DNA from: a virus
DNA length: 44,568 nt
Direction: 5' to 3' (one strand)
Virus genome (UHGV): UHGV-0171754
Shown here: in pieces, positions 2,851-34,622 of the stretch
How the letters are laid out: each line of letters starts with the position of its first letter
How positions within the stretch are numbered: the stretch's first letter is position 1
The notes under the pieces: generated by a model
Databases searched by the model: none
Seen by the model: the letters and a program-made list of their open reading frames with translations, nothing else
Told to the model about the DNA's origin: nothing
Position numbers and translations under genes: made by a program

Positions 2851-3204
2851 TTAGCCCCTTAGCTGTAGTTGAAACAGCATGGTCTGGCCTGCCGGTTGCA
2901 GGGGGTTTGGATTGATAACCCGGTAGTCTGTATTGTTCAGGCTAACCAAATCCCCGACCTTTACCTGATTGACGGCCTGACACAAAAACTTCACATCACC
3001 GGCAACGATACGCGTCCCGTCGATCTCGCTCGGCTTGTACTCCTCTCGAAGACCGATGACGTCAAACGAGGTCGGAGGGATGACCACTTCGTCGCCGTCT
3101 ACGCGGTCGACTGTACCAGGACGCGTCACCGTAGCCGTCATGCCGTACTTTTTAATCAGCGGATTGACTTTCCGCTTTAACCCCGCGTAATTAAAGCCCG
3201 CCAT
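2851..3204 (-). CDS. Head-tail joining protein (gpFII-like)
   Basis: 117 aa from ATG (MAGFNYAG) with GGAGG RBS; position between connector and tail completion genes. Confidence 0.5.
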   Translation of the reverse strand: MAGFNYAGLKRKVNPLIKKYGMTATVTRPGTVDRVDGDEVVIPPTSFDVIGLREEYKPSEIDGTRIVAGDVKFLCQAVNQVKVGDLVSLNNTDYRVINPNPLQPAGQTMLFQLQLRG

Positions 3205-3307
3205 TATCATCCTCCTGTACCGGTGGTTCCGGTTCTGGCGCTGGTTCCGGTTCTGGTTGGCGTTTAGTATTTGCGGCGATAATAGCCGCCAGTAATGCAG
3301 GATTCAT
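3191..3307 (-). CDS. Small Pro/Glu-repeat ORF (38 aa), hypothetical
   Basis: MNPALLAAIIAANTKRQPEPEPAPEPEPPVQEDDNGGL; ATG overlaps upstream stop (TAATATG); below the 60 aa track threshold; built on a tandem DNA repeat. Confidence 0.25.
   Translation of the reverse strand: MNPALLAAIIAANTKRQPEPEPAPEPEPPVQEDDNGGL
3224..3255. repeat. Tandem direct repeat ggttccggttctgg x2
   Basis: Two copies separated by cgct; encodes the PEPEP repeat on the minus strand. Confidence 0.7.
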
Positions 3308-3308
3308 A

Positions 3309-3809
3309 TTACCCCCGGAATACATCAAAATTACCCGCTGCGTTGCCGTCTGAGTCAATCCAGTGGCCCAGCAAGCCATCCCACCACGGGAACGAGACAC
3401 CGCTACCAATCGTCGCAGGGTCATATTCCATCGTGATCGGGCCAACAGTTTCGCGGATAGTCTCCTTACCGCTGCCCACAGGAGAAATATCAACCTCGTC
3501 CGCCACCAACATCGCCAACCGGTAAACGGCTTGCTCAACGGCAACGGGGATTGATGCGAAGTCTACTATTTGCCCTGCAGGCACTACTGCCAAAACTTCA
3601 GTGAGCGTGTCGCGCACCGGCTTGCCGTCAGATGGGTAATTGATGCGAGGCCATGCGTCGATGCCTGTCTGGTCTGCGGGTTCGCCGATCCAGTTGATGC
3701 CGTTAAGGAAGTCATTAACGACGGTGAGGTATCGCGTTGCATCGCTCAGCGTGACTTCAACGCCTCGCGCTGCGGCATAATCGACAAAGGTTTGCGGGTC
3801 GCCATACAT
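3309..3809 (-). CDS. Head-tail connector/adaptor protein (gp6-like)
   Basis: 166 aa from ATG (MYGDPQTFVDYAAARG) with GGAG RBS; immediately downstream of major capsid gene. Confidence 0.5.
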   Translation of the reverse strand: MYGDPQTFVDYAAARGVEVTLSDATRYLTVVNDFLNGINWIGEPADQTGIDAWPRINYPSDGKPVRDTLTEVLAVVPAGQIVDFASIPVAVEQAVYRLAMLVADEVDISPVGSGKETIRETVGPITMEYDPATIGSGVSFPWWDGLLGHWIDSDGNAAGNFDVFRG

Positions 3810-3824
3810 TTCATTCACTCCTAT

Positions 3825-3848
3825 AAAAAAGGCGGGCATAAGCCCGCC
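3825..3848 (-). terminator. Attenuator/terminator after major capsid gene
   Basis: Stem ggcgggc/gcccgcc with 4 nt loop, T-run on minus strand. Confidence 0.5.
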
Positions 3849-3867: not shown

Positions 3868-4968
3868 TTAAGACGCGGTAGTCTCAGTCAGCGTAACCAG
3901 TACGCCAGCCGTTTCCTTGATGTGACGGGTCGGCACTTCCTGTGCGGCCTGGGTCTTACGACGGCCTTTAGTATCACCATCACCCACAGCGCCAACATCT
4001 TGAACGGTTGCCGGTGCGTTGTCTACCTGGCCCTGGTCCAGCTCCCAGTTAGCGGAAGTGGTGATGTCGGACAGTTTGAACGAGCGGACGCCTTCGATCG
4101 GGGTACGAGCGGACGCCTTCAGACGATAGCCTTTAACAGCCACGTTGAAGTCGAACTCACCCTGCCACCAGCGCTCGATGTTCTCGTTACCGCCTTTCTC
4201 CTGCGCCAGCATATCAAGGCCGTTGGTGGTAACTGCAACCGCGCCAGGGACCAGGCCCAGCATGTTACCAGCACCCATAGCATCGGCAGCGGCATCGGAG
4301 ATAATGAAGCGACGGCCCAGGCCATCTCCCATTACCTGGAGATCGCCAATTGCGAATACCTGCTCGGCAGACGGGAGCGCCTGGTATGCAATAAAGTTTG
4401 CCCAGGTAACGCCGTCCATAAACCACGATTTAATCAAAGACGCCTGATCGCCGAACTTAGAAGCCGCCAGCGGGAAGTCTGCCAGGGTCGGGAAGGTACG
4501 ACCGCCAACGCCGTCAACGCGCGCCGGTTGGGTGTATTTTGCCGCTGCGTTGCTTTCGATCGCCGCTTTACCCGCACCGATACCCGCTTTCAGGTAGTGC
4601 AACAAAATCGCTTGAGTGGCCTGCGCCGCAATCTCAGCCGCAACGCTGTTAACGTTGGTTTCGATCTTAGCCATCATAGCCTTAGTGATTGCCACCGGAC
4701 CCACTTTCGCGGACAGGTTGACGGAGTTGGTCAGCATACGCGCCAGCACTTTTGCGGTCGCCGGAGTACCTACAGGGGCATAGGCGTTACGGTCGGTAAC
4801 TAGGTTGGCGATCAAGCCTACGGACATTTTTTCTACAACATCCTTCAGCACTTCACCCGTACCGAGAACAACAGCGCCATTTGCGGCGGCGTTGAACACG
4901 TTCAGGTTATCGGGGATCATTTGCGTAACCGCGGTGACGAGTTTACGCTGGAACACTGTTAAAGACAT
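3868..4968 (-). CDS. Major capsid protein
   Basis: 366 aa; AAAGGA RBS 7 nt before ATG; position after scaffold and before connector genes; sequence looks like a major capsid protein of the HK97-fold class; hairpin terminator follows. Confidence 0.8.
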   Translation of the reverse strand: MSLTVFQRKLVTAVTQMIPDNLNVFNAAANGAVVLGTGEVLKDVVEKMSVGLIANLVTDRNAYAPVGTPATAKVLARMLTNSVNLSAKVGPVAITKAMMAKIETNVNSVAAEIAAQATQAILLHYLKAGIGAGKAAIESNAAAKYTQPARVDGVGGRTFPTLADFPLAASKFGDQASLIKSWFMDGVTWANFIAYQALPSAEQVFAIGDLQVMGDGLGRRFIISDAAADAMGAGNMLGLVPGAVAVTTNGLDMLAQEKGGNENIERWWQGEFDFNVAVKGYRLKASARTPIEGVRSFKLSDITTSANWELDQGQVDNAPATVQDVGAVGDGDTKGRRKTQAAQEVPTRHIKETAGVLVTLTETTAS

Positions 4969-6685: not shown

Positions 6686-6706
6686 AAGGGGCCATTATGG
6701 CCCCTT
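6686..6706. terminator. Bidirectional intrinsic terminator between convergent genes
   Basis: 9 bp stem aaggggcca/tggcccctt with 3 nt loop, A-run upstream and T-rich run downstream. Confidence 0.6.
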
Positions 6707-6925
6707 AATTATTTGCTGCAACTCCAGCACCTGCGCCCTTAGCTTCGCCCCGCATTCCATATTTTTCACGTCAATCATCAAATCTTCGTCGGGGTCCGCA
6801 GACGGGTTATCGAACTTGCACGGCGGTCGCAGTGCCGATTCCGTTAGCGGCATCAACGGCACGCTGCTTGATCCGCACGCGCTCAGCGTCAAAACTACAA
6901 TCAGGGCGGTTAGGGCGCGTAACAT
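6695..6925 (-). CDS. o-spanin (Rz1-like outer membrane lipoprotein)
   Basis: 76 aa from MLRALTALIVVLTLSAC; lipobox LSAC, proline-rich mature part; reading frame overlaps the 3' part of the i-spanin gene. Confidence 0.55.
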   Translation of the reverse strand: MLRALTALIVVLTLSACGSSSVPLMPLTESALRPPCKFDNPSADPDEDLMIDVKNMECGAKLRAQVLELQQIIKGP

Positions 6926-12957: not shown

Positions 12958-13020
12958 ATTTAATTAATTCCTGATTAGTGTACTGGGGACAATATATCAT
13001 GGGACTTATTGAGGCGGGCA

Positions 13021-13046
13021 ATAAAAAGCCCGGATAATACCGGGCT
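13021..13046 (-). terminator. Intrinsic terminator ending the lysis-cassette transcript
   Basis: Stem agcccgg/ccgggct, 6 nt loop, T5 on minus strand. Confidence 0.65.
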
Positions 13047-13053
13047 TGATTGT

Positions 13054-13215
13054 TTACTCTTCTGGCTCTGCGGACGGTGGTGGGCTTGGCAGCTTCGCAT
13101 CGAAGACCCCAGCGTGGCTGATAGTGTCCGCGATGATAGCGCGAGCGCCCGGATCTTCGGTTTTAGCCAGCGCGGCGAGCGCGTCAGCGTTATGATCAAG
13201 AATGCTTTTTAACAT
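13054..13215 (-). CDS. Small acidic hypothetical protein (53 aa)
   Basis: MLKSILDHNADALAALAKTEDPGARAIIADTISHAGVFDAKLPSPPPSAEPEE; GAGGT RBS 8 nt before ATG; stop followed at once by the terminator; below track threshold. Confidence 0.4.
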   Translation of the reverse strand: MLKSILDHNADALAALAKTEDPGARAIIADTISHAGVFDAKLPSPPPSAEPEE

Positions 13216-13231: not shown

Positions 13232-13723
13232 TTATGCGGCGTTACGCCCGATTTTCTCGGCAACGTCCCACTGCTTACCATCAAACAACGCCTGTCTGCC
13301 GATTGCACGGCGCACCAGACCCTTAAGCACTTCCCCGCCTTGCTTGCGGAACAGCGGCAGCGTAGCACGTACCTTCGCCCAGTCGCCCAACCGCACCGCG
13401 TCATCGAAATCATTCGCGACGCCATCCGGTACGATCGGACCCGGACCGGCGTTGATTACCAGGTCCACCAGCGCGTCAAATTGCGCCTGGTTAATGCTCG
13501 GATGTGCGTATTTGTTCACCCAGTCCTCGGCATACGCCACATCGCGCTTGAGCAATGCCAGCGCTTCCTCGCGGGTAATGCTTCGTGGCGGATTAGTGCC
13601 AGTATGACCATAACCCCAGGTGTACAGGCCGCGGGCCTGCTCTTTCTTGGTCGCGAAATACGGCACCGGGCTGAAAGCCTCCCATGCTGCCGTAAATCGT
13701 AGACCGTTATCACTGAATCGCAT
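13232..13723 (-). CDS. Endolysin (lysozyme-like glycoside hydrolase)
   Basis: 163 aa; EAFSPVPY...WGYGHTG segment resembles phage lysozymes (family assignment GH24-like is from memory); adjacent to holin-like genes. Confidence 0.75.
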   Translation of the reverse strand: MRFSDNGLRFTAAWEAFSPVPYFATKKEQARGLYTWGYGHTGTNPPRSITREEALALLKRDVAYAEDWVNKYAHPSINQAQFDALVDLVINAGPGPIVPDGVANDFDDAVRLGDWAKVRATLPLFRKQGGEVLKGLVRRAIGRQALFDGKQWDVAEKIGRNAA

Positions 13724-13955
13724 GTTTTACCCCATTTAAAACAGCATTACGCAGGGTGCGCAATGCAAACAGCCAGATTAACGCGGTCCAGGTGGTATCC
13801 GATACGTCTCCTGTTTGCAACAGTCCAATAAGACAGATCATTGCCGTTAACAGATACAGCACCCGGCCTAAGATGCCATCCTGGACGGACGGCGCATACA
13901 CGTTAAACAGGGACGAAGCCCCGATGATAACAAACAACAGGACGGAGATAATCAT
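13710..13955 (-). CDS. Holin/antiholin-like small membrane protein
   Basis: 81 aa, hydrophobic segments; overlaps endolysin start and upstream gene stop. Confidence 0.5.
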   Translation of the reverse strand: MIISVLLFVIIGASSLFNVYAPSVQDGILGRVLYLLTAMICLIGLLQTGDVSDTTWTALIWLFALRTLRNAVLNGVKHAIQ

Positions 13956-14242
13956 TTTGCGCCCCCCGGAAGGTGTAGCGTCGCAATTGTCTCCCGGATC
14001 CGGTCAGCTATTGGCATCCAGAAGATGGCAGTTACGAAGCCCAAACCGGCGACAGTGCGCTCCCCCGACAAACCAGCCCACTCAGCGATAGCCGGTGCGC
14101 CAAATATGGCACACAGGAAGCCAACTACAACATACAAAACGAAGTTTAGCGGCCCCTTCGTAGCCTCACCATGAATGCGTGCGCCTACGAAGCCACCCGC
14201 CAGACATGCCAGGGCGAATAGCCACTCGTTTAGCTTATCCAT
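13952..14242 (-). CDS. Holin-like membrane protein
   Basis: 96 aa with at least two hydrophobic segments; first gene after a terminator, directly upstream of endolysin. Confidence 0.5.
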   Translation of the reverse strand: MDKLNEWLFALACLAGGFVGARIHGEATKGPLNFVLYVVVGFLCAIFGAPAIAEWAGLSGERTVAGLGFVTAIFWMPIADRIRETIATLHLPGGAK

Positions 14243-14294: not shown

Positions 14295-14582
14295 TTAATC
14301 GAAAACGGACCACTTGCCGACGCCTTTCCACTCCCACCCGGATGACCGTACGGCTTCGAATGTTCGCCCGCCTATCATATCCCGATACCACAGCCACCAC
14401 ATGCGCAACCTGGTAGGGTGCTCCGTGATTCCACGGCGCTTGTATATCACGAACGTCATGCGGGTAATGCTGGCGGCTTCCACCGCGGGCCATACTACGA
14501 ACATCAGGACGCCCAACAGCACCGCGGTAAGCAGGCACAGCCCGCAGATCAAACCAAACCAATAAATCACGTCGTGTAGCAT
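14295..14582 (-). CDS. Small membrane protein, hypothetical
   Basis: 95 aa from ATG (MLHDVIYWFGLICGLCLL) with GGAAGGGG RBS; two hydrophobic segments. Confidence 0.5.
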   Translation of the reverse strand: MLHDVIYWFGLICGLCLLTAVLLGVLMFVVWPAVEAASITRMTFVIYKRRGITEHPTRLRMWWLWYRDMIGGRTFEAVRSSGWEWKGVGKWSVFD

Positions 14583-14703
14583 CGAATTGCCCCTTCCGGT
14601 TTGCCAATATGGCGCGCCCAAGCACGCGCCACGAAGTAATTGCGAAATACCCGACCGCCTATCTCAAAGCGGTTATGCTGAAGCATATCGCGGATCGTCG
14701 CAC

Positions 14704-22137: not shown

Positions 22138-22195
22138 AAGCCGAACGGGGTGGCTCATAATAACCCCGATACATGTGAGAATGAGGAATTGGAAA

Positions 22196-22912
22196 ATGGC
22201 TAAAGTCAACCTGAAAAATGTGCGCGTATGTTTCCTTAAAATTTGGGAACGTGATACCCCTAAACAGGATGGACAAAAACCGGCATACCGTGCAGTGATT
22301 CTTCTTGATAAAGAAGATCCGCAGGTGGACAAAGTGGAAGCGGCAGCGCGCGCAGTGCTCACCGACAAGCTGAAATCCGAGAAGAATGCTGATAAGTGGA
22401 TGGACCGCCACTACGCCCAGGATTCTAAGGAATGCGCAGTCCGCGACGGTGACGAGCGCGACGAAGTAACCGAAGAATTCGAAGGCATGTTGTACATCAA
22501 CGCTAAATCGTTCAAACAGCCAAACATTCAAACGTCACTCGGCGAGAAGCAGACTGAACAAGGTCTGACCGTAGAAGGCGACGAGATCGAAGGCCAGGAG
22601 ATCTACTCCGGTTGTTATTGCAACGTGTCCCTGGATATTTGGGCGTGGAACAATACCAACGGCAAGGGACTCGGTGCCGGTCTTTTGGGTCTGCGCTTCC
22701 GCGATGACGGCGAAGCCTTCGGCGGTGGCGGATCTTCTTGCTCCGACGAAGACCTGGGCGACGACGACGAAGATGAAGTGCCACGCAAGTCCAAAAAGTC
22801 AAAACGTCGTGATGACGATGACGAAGATGAAAAACCTCGTAAACGTCGTAAGCCACGCGATGACGAAGATGATGACGACGACGAAGCGCCACGTAAACGT
22901 CGCCGCCGTTAA
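22196..22912 (+). CDS. Putative ssDNA-binding protein (resembles DUF2815) with charged low-complexity C-terminal tail
   Basis: 238 aa from ATG (MAKVNLKNVRVCF) with GAGGA RBS; lies between the Cas4-like nuclease and DNA polymerase; tail DDDEDEVPRKSKKSKRRDDDDEDEKPRKRRKPRDDEDDDDDEAPRKRRRR. Confidence 0.55.
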   Translation: MAKVNLKNVRVCFLKIWERDTPKQDGQKPAYRAVILLDKEDPQVDKVEAAARAVLTDKLKSEKNADKWMDRHYAQDSKECAVRDGDERDEVTEEFEGMLYINAKSFKQPNIQTSLGEKQTEQGLTVEGDEIEGQEIYSGCYCNVSLDIWAWNNTNGKGLGAGLLGLRFRDDGEAFGGGGSSCSDEDLGDDDEDEVPRKSKKSKRRDDDDEDEKPRKRRKPRDDEDDDDDEAPRKRRRR

Positions 22913-22930: not shown

Positions 22931-22957
22931 AAGCCCGCTTAATGCGGGCTTTTTAAT
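22931..22957 (+). terminator. Intrinsic terminator or attenuator
   Basis: Stem agcccgc/gcgggct with 5 nt loop, then ttttaat. Confidence 0.6.
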
Positions 22958-22970
22958 AGGACAATGAAAA

Positions 22971-23141
22971 ATGCGCATTAAAGCCAGCGAAGTAAAAGTC
23001 GGAATGCAGGTATGGTCTAAATTGCTGGGCGAGTATTTCACCGTTGCCGAGATTCGCAACAACGGCGAGGAGATAACCCTTTCCGACGGTATCTTCTCCA
23101 TGTTCGGCAGCGCTGACGCCGTAGTGAGGATTAAGCAATGA
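22971..23141 (+). CDS. Small hypothetical protein (56 aa)
   Basis: MRIKASEVKVGMQVWSKLLGEYFTVAEIRNNGEEITLSDGIFSMFGSADAVVRIKQ; AGGA RBS; stop overlaps polymerase ATG (ATGA); below track threshold. Confidence 0.4.
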   Translation: MRIKASEVKVGMQVWSKLLGEYFTVAEIRNNGEEITLSDGIFSMFGSADAVVRIKQ

Positions 23142-25429
23142 AAGACTTCGAACGCCTTTTTCTCGATACCGAGACATTTAGCGGGGTGGACCTGAAGAAA
23201 GTGGGCGCATACGCCTACGCAGAGCACCCAACAACCGAGATTATGATTTGCACCTACGCCATCGACGAGGGCCGCGTGCAGACATGGGATTGCACAGAGT
23301 CCCCAACAATGCCGCGTGAACTGCGCAAGGCGCTCCGCAGGGTATCCCGCAAGAAAGCAAAAATAGTGATGGCTAACGGCCTCCTGTTTGACCGCCTGGT
23401 CATTCGCGAGAAGTGGGGCATTGACCTGCCAGTGTGCCAGATCGAAGACACCATGATTATGGCCTTTCGACACGCGCTGCCGGGTGGCCTCGATATGCAG
23501 TGCCAGGTGTTGGGCGTTGACGCAGAGCACGCGAAGGATAAGGCGGGCAAGGCGCTGATCAAACGATTCTGTAAGCCAACCCCTAAGACCTACAAAATCC
23601 GCCGCTACACGCGCGAGACGCACCCCGAGGAGTGGGCTAAATTCCTGCGCTATGCCGCGTTGGATATCATCGCTATGAGGGAAGTCTATTGGCGCATACC
23701 GGACTGGGGCAACACGCCGAAGGAAGACGAAATCCTGCTTATTGACCAGTTGATCAATGACCGCGGCTTCTATGTGGACGTTGACCTGGCGAACGCCGCG
23801 ATCAAAGCGGTGCAGGCGCATAAGGAAGAATTGAAGGAAGAAGCCTGGGAGCGCTTCGGCGGTAAGCTGACCGGCAATGACTTCTTGCCCGCGCTGCGCG
23901 ACCTCGCGCCTGCGTTCACGATCCACAACGCGCAGAAATCCACGCTTAACGACCTGCTTGAAGATCCAGACTTCCCTGACGAGGGCAAAGTGCTTATCGA
24001 GATGCGCCTCGGGGCATCATCAACGGCGTCGACTAAGTACAATCCGCTCGTAAATGGGCTGTCTGCCGATGGTCGCCGCCGTGGTTGTCTTCAGTATGGT
24101 GGGGCAAAGCGCACGCTACGCTGGGCCGGTAAGGGCTTCCAGCCGCAAAACCTGGCACGCGGCGAGTATAGCGACGACCACGAAGGGAAGATTAAGCGCC
24201 GTGAAGGCGAGAGCGACGTCGCGTTTTGGGTGCGGTCGCACATGCTTACCAACGGCATCAACTCCCTGTTACGCGGGACCGCACACTGGGCGTATGACAT
24301 ATCGAAGTTAACAGCCTCGACCGTTCGCGGGTGCATTATTCCGGCTAAGGGAAAGAAGTTTGTCGTAGCGGACTATTCTAACGTGGAAGGGCGTGGCCTC
24401 GCCTGGATCGCTGGCGAGAAAACCGCGCTAATGGTGTTTAGGGCGGGTCGCGATATTTATTGTGAAACTGCCGGTAAGATGTTTGGCCTCGACCCGGAAT
24501 ACATTAAAGCCAACCGCAAAGACTTACGCCAGATCGGTAAGGCGTGCGAATTGGGACTAGGCTATGGCGGCGGCGTTGCGGCGTTCTTGCAGTTCGCTAA
24601 AAACCTGGGCCTCGACCTTTACGCGATGGCTGACGTGATGAAGGGCACATTCCCAGACCACATATGGGCGGCGGCGAAACGTGGTTATGAGTACGCCCGA
24701 ATCAACGAAGCGAAGCGCCCGCCGAAGCCTGGCAAGAAGGACGAGCGCCCAACTTATATACTGCCGAAAAACGTGTGGTTGACGTGTGACGCGATCAAAC
24801 GTATGTGGCGTGAGGCCCACCCGAAGACGGTAGCCTTTTGGGCCGAACTGGAAGACGCGGTGTTGTGTGCAATCCGCAATCCAGGCAAAGCGTACTGGGC
24901 TGGCGCGAACGTTCGCCCGGATGGCAGGAAAGCGCTTAAGATTGTTCGCACGAAGGCGAAGCATGACCCAACCTTCGACGAGGAGCGCGACGACCCGAAC
25001 GCGGCGGGGTGGTGGCTTAAAATTGAGTTGCCGTCAGGGCGCATCATGAGTTATCCGGGCATCGCGCTGTCTGTCACTACCGAGATCGACGAAGATACTG
25101 GCAAGAAACGCACCAGCACCCGCATTAAATACCAGGGCGAGAATCAGACGACGCGCCAGTGGGGCTTCCAGTATACCTACGGCGGCAAACTGACGGAAAA
25201 CATCGTGCAGGCGCTGTGTCGCGATATCCTCGCATGGTCCATGCCTGGCGTTGAATCCGCGGGATACGAGATCGTCCTGTCAGTGCACGATGAATTGATC
25301 ACCGAAGTTCCGGATACTGACGACTACACGACCGAGGAGCTATGCGCGCTGATGTGCGACCTGCCTATTTGGGCGAAAGGGTTCCCACTTGCCGCCGAAG
25401 GCGATTGTATGTATCGCTACCGCAAGTAG
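23138..25429 (+). CDS. Family A DNA polymerase with 3'-5' exonuclease domain
   Basis: 763 aa; exo motif FLDTETFSG; polymerase motif A DYSNVEGRGLAWIAGE, motif B RQIGKACELGLGYGGG, motif C SVHDELITEV. Confidence 0.9.
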   Translation: MKDFERLFLDTETFSGVDLKKVGAYAYAEHPTTEIMICTYAIDEGRVQTWDCTESPTMPRELRKALRRVSRKKAKIVMANGLLFDRLVIREKWGIDLPVCQIEDTMIMAFRHALPGGLDMQCQVLGVDAEHAKDKAGKALIKRFCKPTPKTYKIRRYTRETHPEEWAKFLRYAALDIIAMREVYWRIPDWGNTPKEDEILLIDQLINDRGFYVDVDLANAAIKAVQAHKEELKEEAWERFGGKLTGNDFLPALRDLAPAFTIHNAQKSTLNDLLEDPDFPDEGKVLIEMRLGASSTASTKYNPLVNGLSADGRRRGCLQYGGAKRTLRWAGKGFQPQNLARGEYSDDHEGKIKRREGESDVAFWVRSHMLTNGINSLLRGTAHWAYDISKLTASTVRGCIIPAKGKKFVVADYSNVEGRGLAWIAGEKTALMVFRAGRDIYCETAGKMFGLDPEYIKANRKDLRQIGKACELGLGYGGGVAAFLQFAKNLGLDLYAMADVMKGTFPDHIWAAAKRGYEYARINEAKRPPKPGKKDERPTYILPKNVWLTCDAIKRMWREAHPKTVAFWAELEDAVLCAIRNPGKAYWAGANVRPDGRKALKIVRTKAKHDPTFDEERDDPNAAGWWLKIELPSGRIMSYPGIALSVTTEIDEDTGKKRTSTRIKYQGENQTTRQWGFQYTYGGKLTENIVQALCRDILAWSMPGVESAGYEIVLSVHDELITEVPDTDDYTTEELCALMCDLPIWAKGFPLAAEGDCMYRYRK

Positions 25430-34403: not shown

Positions 34404-34622
34404 ATGAAAACTTTAATTATGATTTGTGCGGTTCTTCTGTCGGGTTGTGCCAACATGCCGACTAAAGTCTGCGACGCGACATATGTTAATAGCGGCATGG
34501 AATACTCGGTCCCGGTGTTTGGGGTTGCCGACTTTAGTGGACACAAAATGATCAAGGCTGGGTATCCGTTCAACTTCCAGTATGTGTCGGTCGACCACTT
34601 CAAAAGCACAACCTGCAAATAA
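34404..34622 (+). CDS. Small lipoprotein (72 aa), opposite-strand insertion next to the tail fiber gene; candidate superinfection-exclusion protein
   Basis: Signal peptide with lipobox MKTLIMICAVLLSGC; AGGGGGA RBS; own promoter and terminator hairpin. Confidence 0.65.
   Translation: MKTLIMICAVLLSGCANMPTKVCDATYVNSGMEYSVPVFGVADFSGHKMIKAGYPFNFQYVSVDHFKSTTCK

Follow-up and report, generated by a model that had tools for sequence, protein, structure and literature searches.

The window analysed, a stretch of 44,568 nucleotides of viral DNA (UHGV virus genome UHGV-0171754), contains a short open reading frame between an endolysin gene and its terminator. The question raised by this locus is whether so short a frame is a gene and, if it is, whether its product regulates lysis or does something else. 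The same question applies to two further short frames, and the three are referred to here as ORF1, ORF2 and ORF3:

13054-13215, minus strand: ORF1, 53 aa, with its ATG at 13215
22971-23141, plus strand: ORF2, 56 aa, a member of phrog_10102
3191-3307, minus strand: ORF3, 38 aa, a member of phrog_11158

All three frames were present in the sequence at the coordinates, strands and lengths originally given for them. Their products would have masses of 5.46 kDa (ORF1), 6.25 kDa (ORF2) and 3.99 kDa (ORF3). The 4-kb stretch around the finding was 90-93% identical at the nucleotide level to Escherichia/Shigella Dhillonvirus phages (HK578-like siphophages), with matches to 157 records, YD-2008.s and EK99P-1 among them, and the window is therefore essentially one Dhillonvirus genome. 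Related loci were retrieved through the neighbouring genes and not through the ORFs themselves, so the sample of loci is unbiased towards retention of the ORFs.

The original prediction had credited the three frames with ribosome-binding sites and with start-stop coupling to their neighbours. The ribosome-binding sites were confirmed, GAGGT for ORF1 and AGGA for ORF2 being read from the sequence. The coupling was found in ORF2 and ORF3 but not, strictly, in ORF1, which is separated from the endolysin stop by a gap of 16 nt. The lengths of the open frames were not significant by themselves (P 0.07-0.16 by chance for the three ORFs), and it is because of their conservation across the relatives that the frames can be regarded as coding beyond chance. 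Reading-frame conservation in related phages, proposed earlier as a check, was detected in all three. The pN/pS ratio, calculated from pooled pairwise comparisons across relatives for all six frames, was by far the lowest in the claimed frame, with values of 0.099 for ORF1, 0.088 for ORF2 and 0.35 for ORF3. The antisense frame sharing the third codon positions gave values of 0.20-0.46, and the four frames without shared third positions mostly values of 0.8-3.6. A chi-square test on the variable columns indicated third-position bias in each ORF: the third codon positions held 33 of the 49 variable columns in ORF1 (p 3e-6), 26 of 39 in ORF2 (p 5e-5) and 20 of 41 in ORF3 (p 0.045). All three ORFs are genuine genes, and purifying selection has conserved them in the frames claimed. 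The alternative frames of 74, 67 and 49 aa overlapping around ORF1 had pN/pS values of 2.5-3.2, and as these are above 2 the frames are not coding.

Each ORF matched a PHROG family from end to end: ORF1 matched phrog_11068 (E 1.5e-37), ORF2 phrog_10102 (E 7.5e-42; residues 1-56 of 56) and ORF3 phrog_11158 (E 1.9e-26; residues 1-38 of 38). The three families carry no functional annotation in PHROGs, and zero matches to any of the ORFs were found in Pfam and NCBIfam. In the manually curated BASEL phage GeorgBuechner, ORF1 corresponds to gp63 (in a long form), ORF2 to gp42 and ORF3 to gp11. ORF1 is also present as EpYD_44 in YD-2008.s and as gp59 in EK99P-1, and ORF3 as HK578_010, SSL-2009a gp12 and JLBYU60_12. 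The annotated relatives of ORF3 were found by a protein search with the query extended by 44 aa; tblastn with ORF3, under low-complexity masking of the query, gave zero matches. The annotation given to the ORFs in relatives is "hypothetical protein". With a full-length family match and an annotated counterpart in curated relatives for each ORF, the claim that such genes are routinely missed did not hold. The ORFs are already catalogued and none of them is a missed gene; the observation is real, ordinary and largely known.

ORF1 stands at the end of the lysis cassette, which includes the following features:

14277-14248: terminator-like hairpin just upstream of the holin genes
13952-14242 and 13710-13955, minus strand: holin gene pair at the head of the cassette (phrog_2359 and phrog_2508)
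13232-13723, minus strand: endolysin gene directly upstream of ORF1, annotated as endolysin in relatives
13228-13224, minus strand: Shine-Dalgarno sequence of ORF1, read from the sequence, 8 nt upstream of the ATG
13047-13026, minus strand: intrinsic-terminator-like hairpin AAGCCCGG-N6-CCGGGCTT with a T-run, 6 nt past the ORF1 stop

The endolysin stop (13234-13232) and the ORF1 start are thus close without overlapping. The Shine-Dalgarno sequence reads gaggt, gagga or ggggt in the relatives, and the N-terminal module of ORF1 is kept in 16 of the 18 loci. Both the acidic character assigned to the product (pI 4.65) and the position of the gene between endolysin and terminator were verified. The hairpin at 13047-13026, which in the relatives is the same one 3' of the stop in short and long alleles of the gene, terminates the lysis and decoration transcription unit. 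Judging from its place as the final gene of the holin-holin-endolysin unit, ORF1 would be made late.

The identity of the ORF1 product was indicated by PDB entry 9zys. Chain H of this entry, "Decoration protein gp64" (55 aa), was matched by ORF1 with a phmmer E value of 2.9e-27, the alignment running from residues 1-51 to 1-51 with 48 of the 51 residues identical, and with an E value of 4e-34 in a profile match. The cognate capsid protein of the decoration family is encoded in the same genome as ORF1:

3868-4968, minus strand: major capsid protein, matching PDB 9zys_A "Major capsid protein gp09" (E 4.8e-232, residues 1-366)

The sequence file of 9zys includes seven capsid chains and two decoration chains, and the seven capsid chains presumably represent the asymmetric unit expected for a T=7 shell. 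Portal structures of the same phage group are present in PDB as entries 10ec and 11cq. One IMG/VR relative (L011) encodes, directly after its endolysin gene, a 55-aa protein that agrees with every aligned 9zys residue shown. Since the near-identical chain H was deposited together with a near-identical capsid protein, ORF1 is a structural protein and not a lysis regulator. By sequence homology it is the short form of a capsid decoration protein, a label that is the 9zys depositors' own.

The AF2 model of ORF1 shows a helical hairpin with helices at residues 2-18 and 22-35 (pLDDT 85-90 over residues 1-30), and beyond the hairpin a disordered, acidic, Pro-rich tail. When this model was compared with PDB (to 2026-04-08), Foldseek found generic helical hairpins only (E at least 2), and 9zys was not returned. 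By homology to the solved structure, ORF1 would be part of the capsid shell, and the major capsid protein would be its binding partner. The helical hairpin of about 35 residues would bind the outside of the HK97-fold capsid, and the Pro-rich acidic tail would then point outward. The literature search found no paper on PDB 9zys or on a Dhillonvirus capsid or decoration protein; the Sf11 paper deals with another phage and another decoration fold.

The original prediction described small proteins in such positions as often being regulators or inhibitors, and for ORF1 this would mean a role in lysis, be it as an antiholin, as a modulator of the endolysin or in place of a spanin. The gene order agrees with it: ORF1 closes the holin-holin-endolysin unit, which is bracketed by two terminator-like hairpins. 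Also, related T1-like phages have a spanin gene after that of the endolysin, and the lysis module comes with small accessory domains (PMC13164509). However, the suggestion is contradicted by the near-identical homologue modelled as a decoration protein on the capsid in 9zys, and the product itself has none of the lysis-protein features looked for, with a maximum 19-residue hydropathy of 0.69, no transmembrane segment and no lipobox, nor, at a pI of 4.65, the cationic amphipathic character of disruptin-like proteins. The i- and o-spanin genes are located elsewhere, forming an Rz-like spanin pair in the head-morphogenesis region (gp05/gp06 in GeorgBuechner), of which the window includes:

6695-6925: o-spanin (phrog_5672)

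As the spanins are encoded elsewhere, the lysis machinery does not need ORF1. Furthermore, the long alleles of ORF1 bear Big_2, a domain typical of virion surface proteins. With the spanins elsewhere and the PDB match to a decoration protein, the candidate roles of spanin substitute and lysis regulator were rejected, and a lysis function for ORF1 is considered extremely improbable.

The gene following the endolysin occurs in two forms among the relatives of the capsid decoration gene ORF1. Long alleles (HK578, SSL-2009a, GeorgBuechner gp63 and ZCEC10) encode 133-137 aa, of which the first approximately 45 residues are ORF1-like and are followed by Pfam Big_2 (E 1.6e-9 to 5.5e-12). The long gene is labelled "structural protein with Ig domain" in PHROGs and "major tail protein" in ZCEC10. 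From the Ig label, a protein of the virion surface held by a small anchor was to be expected, and the PDB match confirmed this. A near full-length Ig-bearing allele was present in 40 phage records out of approximately 157 Dhillonvirus records and in seven of the 16 IMG/VR loci. Roughly one Dhillonvirus in four carries the Big_2-bearing allele. The Ig alleles include at least three classes, with approximately 60% and 43% identity to each other. The short alleles (53-57 aa) end in hypervariable tails, which are mostly acidic and Pro/Glu-rich and in one locus (L017) lysine-rich.

The difference between the short and long forms is a clean cassette: homology to the window extends to approximately codon 45 and is regained at the stop codon and the terminator. 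Between the alleles, the Ig-coding segment has been cleanly inserted or deleted. The window contained no trace of Ig-coding DNA, the terminator following directly after the ORF1 stop. In the phages with a long allele the same anchor carries Big_2 in place of the short tail, ORF1 being the minimal version. The N-terminal module of the HK578-type decoration protein has only 38% identity to that of ORF1, whereas the capsid proteins of the phages with this module are 97.5-99.2% identical to that of the window and include no discriminating residue, and the decoration gene is therefore exchanged independently of the capsid gene. A test for co-varying residues in the capsid protein and the decoration N-terminal module gave no signal for a specific interface.

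ORF2 is located among replication genes on the plus strand:

22175-22912, plus strand: T7 gp2.5-like ssDNA-binding protein (SSB), upstream neighbour of ORF2 (phrog_112, E 4.6e-57)
22933-22954, plus strand: hairpin GCCCGC-TTAAT-GCGGGC followed by TTTTT, between the SSB gene and ORF2, read from the sequence
22958-22961, plus strand: ribosome-binding site AGGA of ORF2, 9 nt upstream of the start
23138-25429, plus strand: family-A DNA polymerase (PF00476 on homologous genes)

The coupling of ORF2 to the polymerase start was present as described, the ORF2 stop overlapping the polymerase ATG as ATGA (23138-23141), and a GAGGA inside the 3' end of ORF2 is the ribosome-binding site of the polymerase. 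The hairpin at 22933-22954 was not listed by the consensus scan. ORF2 was found in 155 phage records, nearly all of them with 90-98% identity, and no locus lacked it where the polymerase was at least 93% identical and the upstream sequence readable.

An exhaustive HMMER search of 1.84 billion representatives produced 12 matches to ORF2, of which eight were small standalone proteins (45-69 aa) and the others repeat-protein noise. Scans of IMG/VR and metagenomes with the ORF2 alignment returned close relatives only. The homologues keep the motif G-M-R-V-W-S-x-L-L-x-E-Y-F-T-V ... L-x-D/E-G-I-F/Y at 36-51% identity. The genomic contexts of five distant homologues were obtained by exact look-ups, and on all five contigs the homologue was followed by a family-A polymerase gene, either at once or after one small ORF. 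On four of the five, those with readable upstream sequence, it was itself preceded by a gene or gene fragment of a gp2.5/Enc34-type SSB. Four of the homologues had a stop overlapping or abutting the polymerase start, the exception (L082) having an intervening ORF of 58 aa. The distant homologues were also preceded by a GC hairpin with a T-run ("gggcttttt") and a strong ribosome-binding site. On the five contigs the polymerase was 64-84% identical and ORF2 only 42-50%, and ORF2 is therefore evolving faster while keeping its place. ORF2 was not present in a relative whose polymerase was 75% identical or in any of those at approximately 40%, in which the SSB gene directly precedes the polymerase gene, and it is thus not essential to the polymerase family. 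The AF2 model of ORF2 was unusable (pLDDT 52.6), with a low-confidence prediction of beta-strands, and no match to PDB was found (best E 0.47).

ORF2 would be a small protein whose production is tied to that of the family-A DNA polymerase. The conserved gene order suggests that it acts with or on the polymerase or the replisome, and the chance of this is put at even or slightly below. The more specific reading that it is a phage-encoded small polymerase subunit, co-translated with the polymerase for processivity, folding or replisome docking, is possible if somewhat doubtful. Phage T7 gp5 recruits host thioredoxin, and a polymerase subunit encoded by ORF2 would be a viral counterpart of this host protein and the founding member of a new family of fast-evolving polymerase partners.

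Other readings of ORF2 take the peptide to be irrelevant or its neighbourhood to be incidental. As a translational leader, ORF2 would serve to deliver ribosomes to the polymerase start, which agrees with the ATGA overlap, the polymerase ribosome-binding site within the frame, the overlapping or abutting stops of most distant homologues and the divergence much faster than that of the polymerase. The low pN/pS among close relatives is against it, as is the persistence of the motif, which a pure spacer would lose, and the ORF between the homologue and the polymerase gene in L082 shows that direct coupling is not obligatory. This reading is decidedly unlikely. A host-takeover or anti-defence protein riding in the replication operon, for which the small T7 class II proteins around gene 5 provide a comparison, is unlikely too. 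It is in line with the small size and fast evolution of ORF2, with its being non-essential across the wider polymerase family and with the lack of a recognisable domain, and accessory genes against host defence, anti-Tmn for one (PMC11846954), are indeed found in Dhillonviruses. However, the strict positional linkage to the polymerase in the homologues found is unusual for freely shuffling accessory genes, and the presence of ORF2 in essentially all Dhillonvirus records is not patchy. ORF2 also differs from the published anti-Tmn, an accessory gene that is absent from phage SM_A8 (PMC11846954). Homologues of both ORF1 and ORF2 are present in SM_A8, and anti-Tmn was rejected as the identity of either. 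The linkage of SSB, ORF2 and polymerase is the best remaining lead, being both concrete and testable.

ORF3 was predicted as a Pro/Glu repeat frame between two connector genes, and this was confirmed, the neighbours being:

3309-3839, minus strand: head-tail adaptor Ad1, upstream neighbour of ORF3 (phrog_477, E 7.5e-38)
2851-3210, minus strand: head-closure protein or stopper Hc1, downstream neighbour of ORF3 (phrog_161, E 3.6e-29)

Hc1 also matched PDB 10lj_A "Stopper protein gp12" over residues 1-119 (E 3.5e-74). ORF3 starts 1 nt past the adaptor stop (TAAtATG) and overlaps the Hc1 start by 20 nt. Its architecture was constant, consisting of MNPALLAAIIAANTK, a Pro/Glu-rich acidic stretch and a C-terminus ending in GGL. 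The N-terminal hydrophobic helix (ALLAAIIAA) is too short to span a membrane, since the maximum 19-residue hydropathy of ORF3 is 0.06. The ribosome-binding site (AGGAGG) and the ATG of Hc1 overlap ORF3 and dictate its final residues, EDDNGGL, which are therefore uninformative about the peptide. No match to PDB was found for ORF3; its absence from solved models is uninformative, because PDB lacks the adaptor and the tail-completion protein as well.

Among the three ORFs it is chiefly ORF3 that could be a chance open frame in a spacer, or a copied annotation habit. A frame of 38 codons is open by chance with a P of approximately 0.16, the C-terminus is forced by the Hc1 overlap, and the pN/pS of ORF3 is only moderately low. 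However, the frame was open in 15 of 15 related loci, with length variants of 38 or 39 aa that differ by whole codons, and the variation in the helix codons was mostly synonymous, six codons having synonymous changes only. The most diverged locus (L058) keeps the start, architecture and length in spite of a changed frame offset to the upstream gene: its ORF3 has 39 aa with 20 identical residues, and includes a different hydrophobic helix and a different acidic tail. In Edwardsiella phage eiAU, with an Ad1 only 40.6% identical, the gap between Ad1 and Hc1 contains an unannotated ORF of up to 53 aa with a similar layout, that is, a hydrophobic helix, a Pro/Glu/Gln-rich middle and an overlap with the Hc1 start. 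A chance frame or annotation artefact is accordingly given very little probability. In Pectobacterium phage Taid and Serratia phage Scapp no gap separates Ad1 from Hc1, and ORF3 is absent.

As a gene, ORF3 would encode a peptide of 4 kDa, with translation re-initiating between the genes for the adaptor and for head closure. Its position and conservation tentatively suggest a small head-completion or neck-assembly factor binding its partner by the hydrophobic helix, a role judged somewhat less than evenly probable. Two other interpretations of the frame were rejected. For a programmed-frameshift extension of Ad1, the offset was +1 in 14 loci and +2 in L058, and the stop TAA or TGA; for a 117-aa, TTG-initiated extension of ORF3 (3191-3544), the equivalent frame in relatives was an ORF of at most 45 aa.

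Taken together, the three frames would be ordinary, expressed small genes of a Dhillonvirus. The joint model, with ORF1 as a decoration protein, ORF2 as a polymerase-linked protein and ORF3 in head completion or the neck, is very probably correct. These findings overturn nothing in current understanding. They do have a consequence for annotation, as the gene called "hypothetical", "major tail protein" or "putative lysozyme" in approximately 150 Dhillonvirus genomes should be named as that of the capsid decoration protein. The existence of minimal and Ig-displaying forms suggests a natural site for display and engineering on phages that are used for therapy and in studies of defence systems.

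Compared with gp64 of 9zys, ORF1 belongs to the same length class and is accompanied by the same capsid protein, and the two differ only in the hypervariable last residues, PPEEP... in 9zys and PSAEPEE in ORF1. Homology, the cognate capsid protein and genomic position all place ORF1 in the gp64 family. ORF1 and the long Dhillonvirus alleles agree in N-terminal module and ribosome-binding site, and both follow the endolysin gene and precede the terminator, but ORF1 does not have the Big_2 domain of approximately 90 residues that in the long alleles follows a Pro-rich linker.

Very small auxiliary capsid proteins are also found in other phages, such as SPP1 gp12 (approximately 6.6 kDa) and T4 Soc (approximately 9 kDa). 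ORF1 resembles them in size class and in the role of a non-essential outer capsid protein, but the folds are different: SPP1 gp12 is a collagen-like trimer and T4 Soc an alpha/beta protein, while a helical hairpin is predicted for ORF1. T5 pb10 and T4 Hoc are decoration proteins with a capsid-binding module and an exposed Ig-like domain. Their defining Ig domain is absent from ORF1, which has no Pfam match and no sequence in common with their anchors, and is thus not a member of this group. The long alleles are similar to them in architecture, with a small capsid anchor and an outward Ig-like domain, but there is no sequence similarity outside the Ig domain, the PDB matches of the long form being to Big_2 only, and the Dhillonvirus anchor has only approximately 35-45 residues. 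T5 pb10 is also described in PMC10766600. A further point in common with the two proteins is an Ig domain that appears to be dispensable.

The decoration gene (53 aa in its short form in the window), which directly follows the endolysin gene, is polymorphic across the genus Dhillonvirus: in approximately one quarter of the dhillonviruses its N-terminal anchor is fused with a Big_2 Ig-like domain. The Big_2-bearing alleles include at least three classes, and the labels they carry also differ, being variously 'major tail protein', 'putative lysozyme' and 'structural protein with Ig domain'. They were found in the following sequences:

Related loci L003, L006-L008, L010, L014 and L018, at ~3009-3420: decoration gene with Big_2 domain
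GenBank matches H111-H124: decoration gene with Big_2 domain

In the deposited sequence of phage SM_A8 (L059, PP920553.1), decoration-gene segments of ~40-110 nt are repeated in tandem at 1501-1830, and the frame of the gene is broken by these repeats, which are either an assembly artefact or a genuine duplication. An SM_A8 escape mutant with the mutation 'Major tail protein Pro53fs' is listed in the study of the Dhillonvirus anti-Tmn gene (PMC11846954), and the gene hit by this mutation may be the decoration gene.

Downstream of the decoration-gene terminator, three related loci (L003, L008 and L009) have a TTGACT...TATACT element resembling a promoter, together with one or two additional small genes, before the exonuclease gene. 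The insert formed by this element and the small genes is absent from the corresponding region of the window (12958-13025).

ORF2, the 56-aa frame preceding the DNA polymerase gene, is absent from L035 (~1895-2000), a relative with a polymerase identity of 75%. The L035 polymerase instead appears to start with an N-terminal extension that is short and basic (MYKKMIGRKTKRGRARAFKR...). In one distant contig, L082, an additional 58-aa ORF (4188-4364) separates the ORF2 homologue from the polymerase gene.

Three further reading frames of the window were recorded:

6695-6925, minus strand: Rz-like o-spanin lipoprotein (phrog_5672)
14295-14621, minus strand: 108-aa ORF (phrog_2531, unknown function) containing a hydrophobic stretch
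34404-34622, plus strand: 72-aa ORF for a lipoprotein, MKTLIMICAVLLSGC..., preceded by a good ribosome-binding site

The o-spanin gene lies within the head-morphogenesis region, ~6 kb from the holin-endolysin cassette, and the lysis genes of the window are therefore divided over two loci. The 108-aa ORF is situated directly upstream of the hairpin preceding the holin genes. The 72-aa ORF, downstream of the tail-fibre region, may encode a Cor-like superinfection-exclusion lipoprotein.

The frame of ORF3, the 38-aa ORF between the adaptor (Ad1) and head-closure (Hc1) genes, is open for 79 codons further upstream (3191-3544, minus strand), with a TTG start and an overlap with Ad1. This extension looks fortuitous, because the equivalent frame gives an ORF of 45 aa at most in the relatives. 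In Edwardsiella phage eiAU (L086, NC_042029.1), an unannotated ORF of at most 53 aa (1728-1889) occupies the 135-nt gap that separates Ad1 from Hc1. Its layout is the same as that of ORF3: it has a hydrophobic helix and a middle part rich in Pro, Glu and Gln, and it overlaps the start of Hc1.
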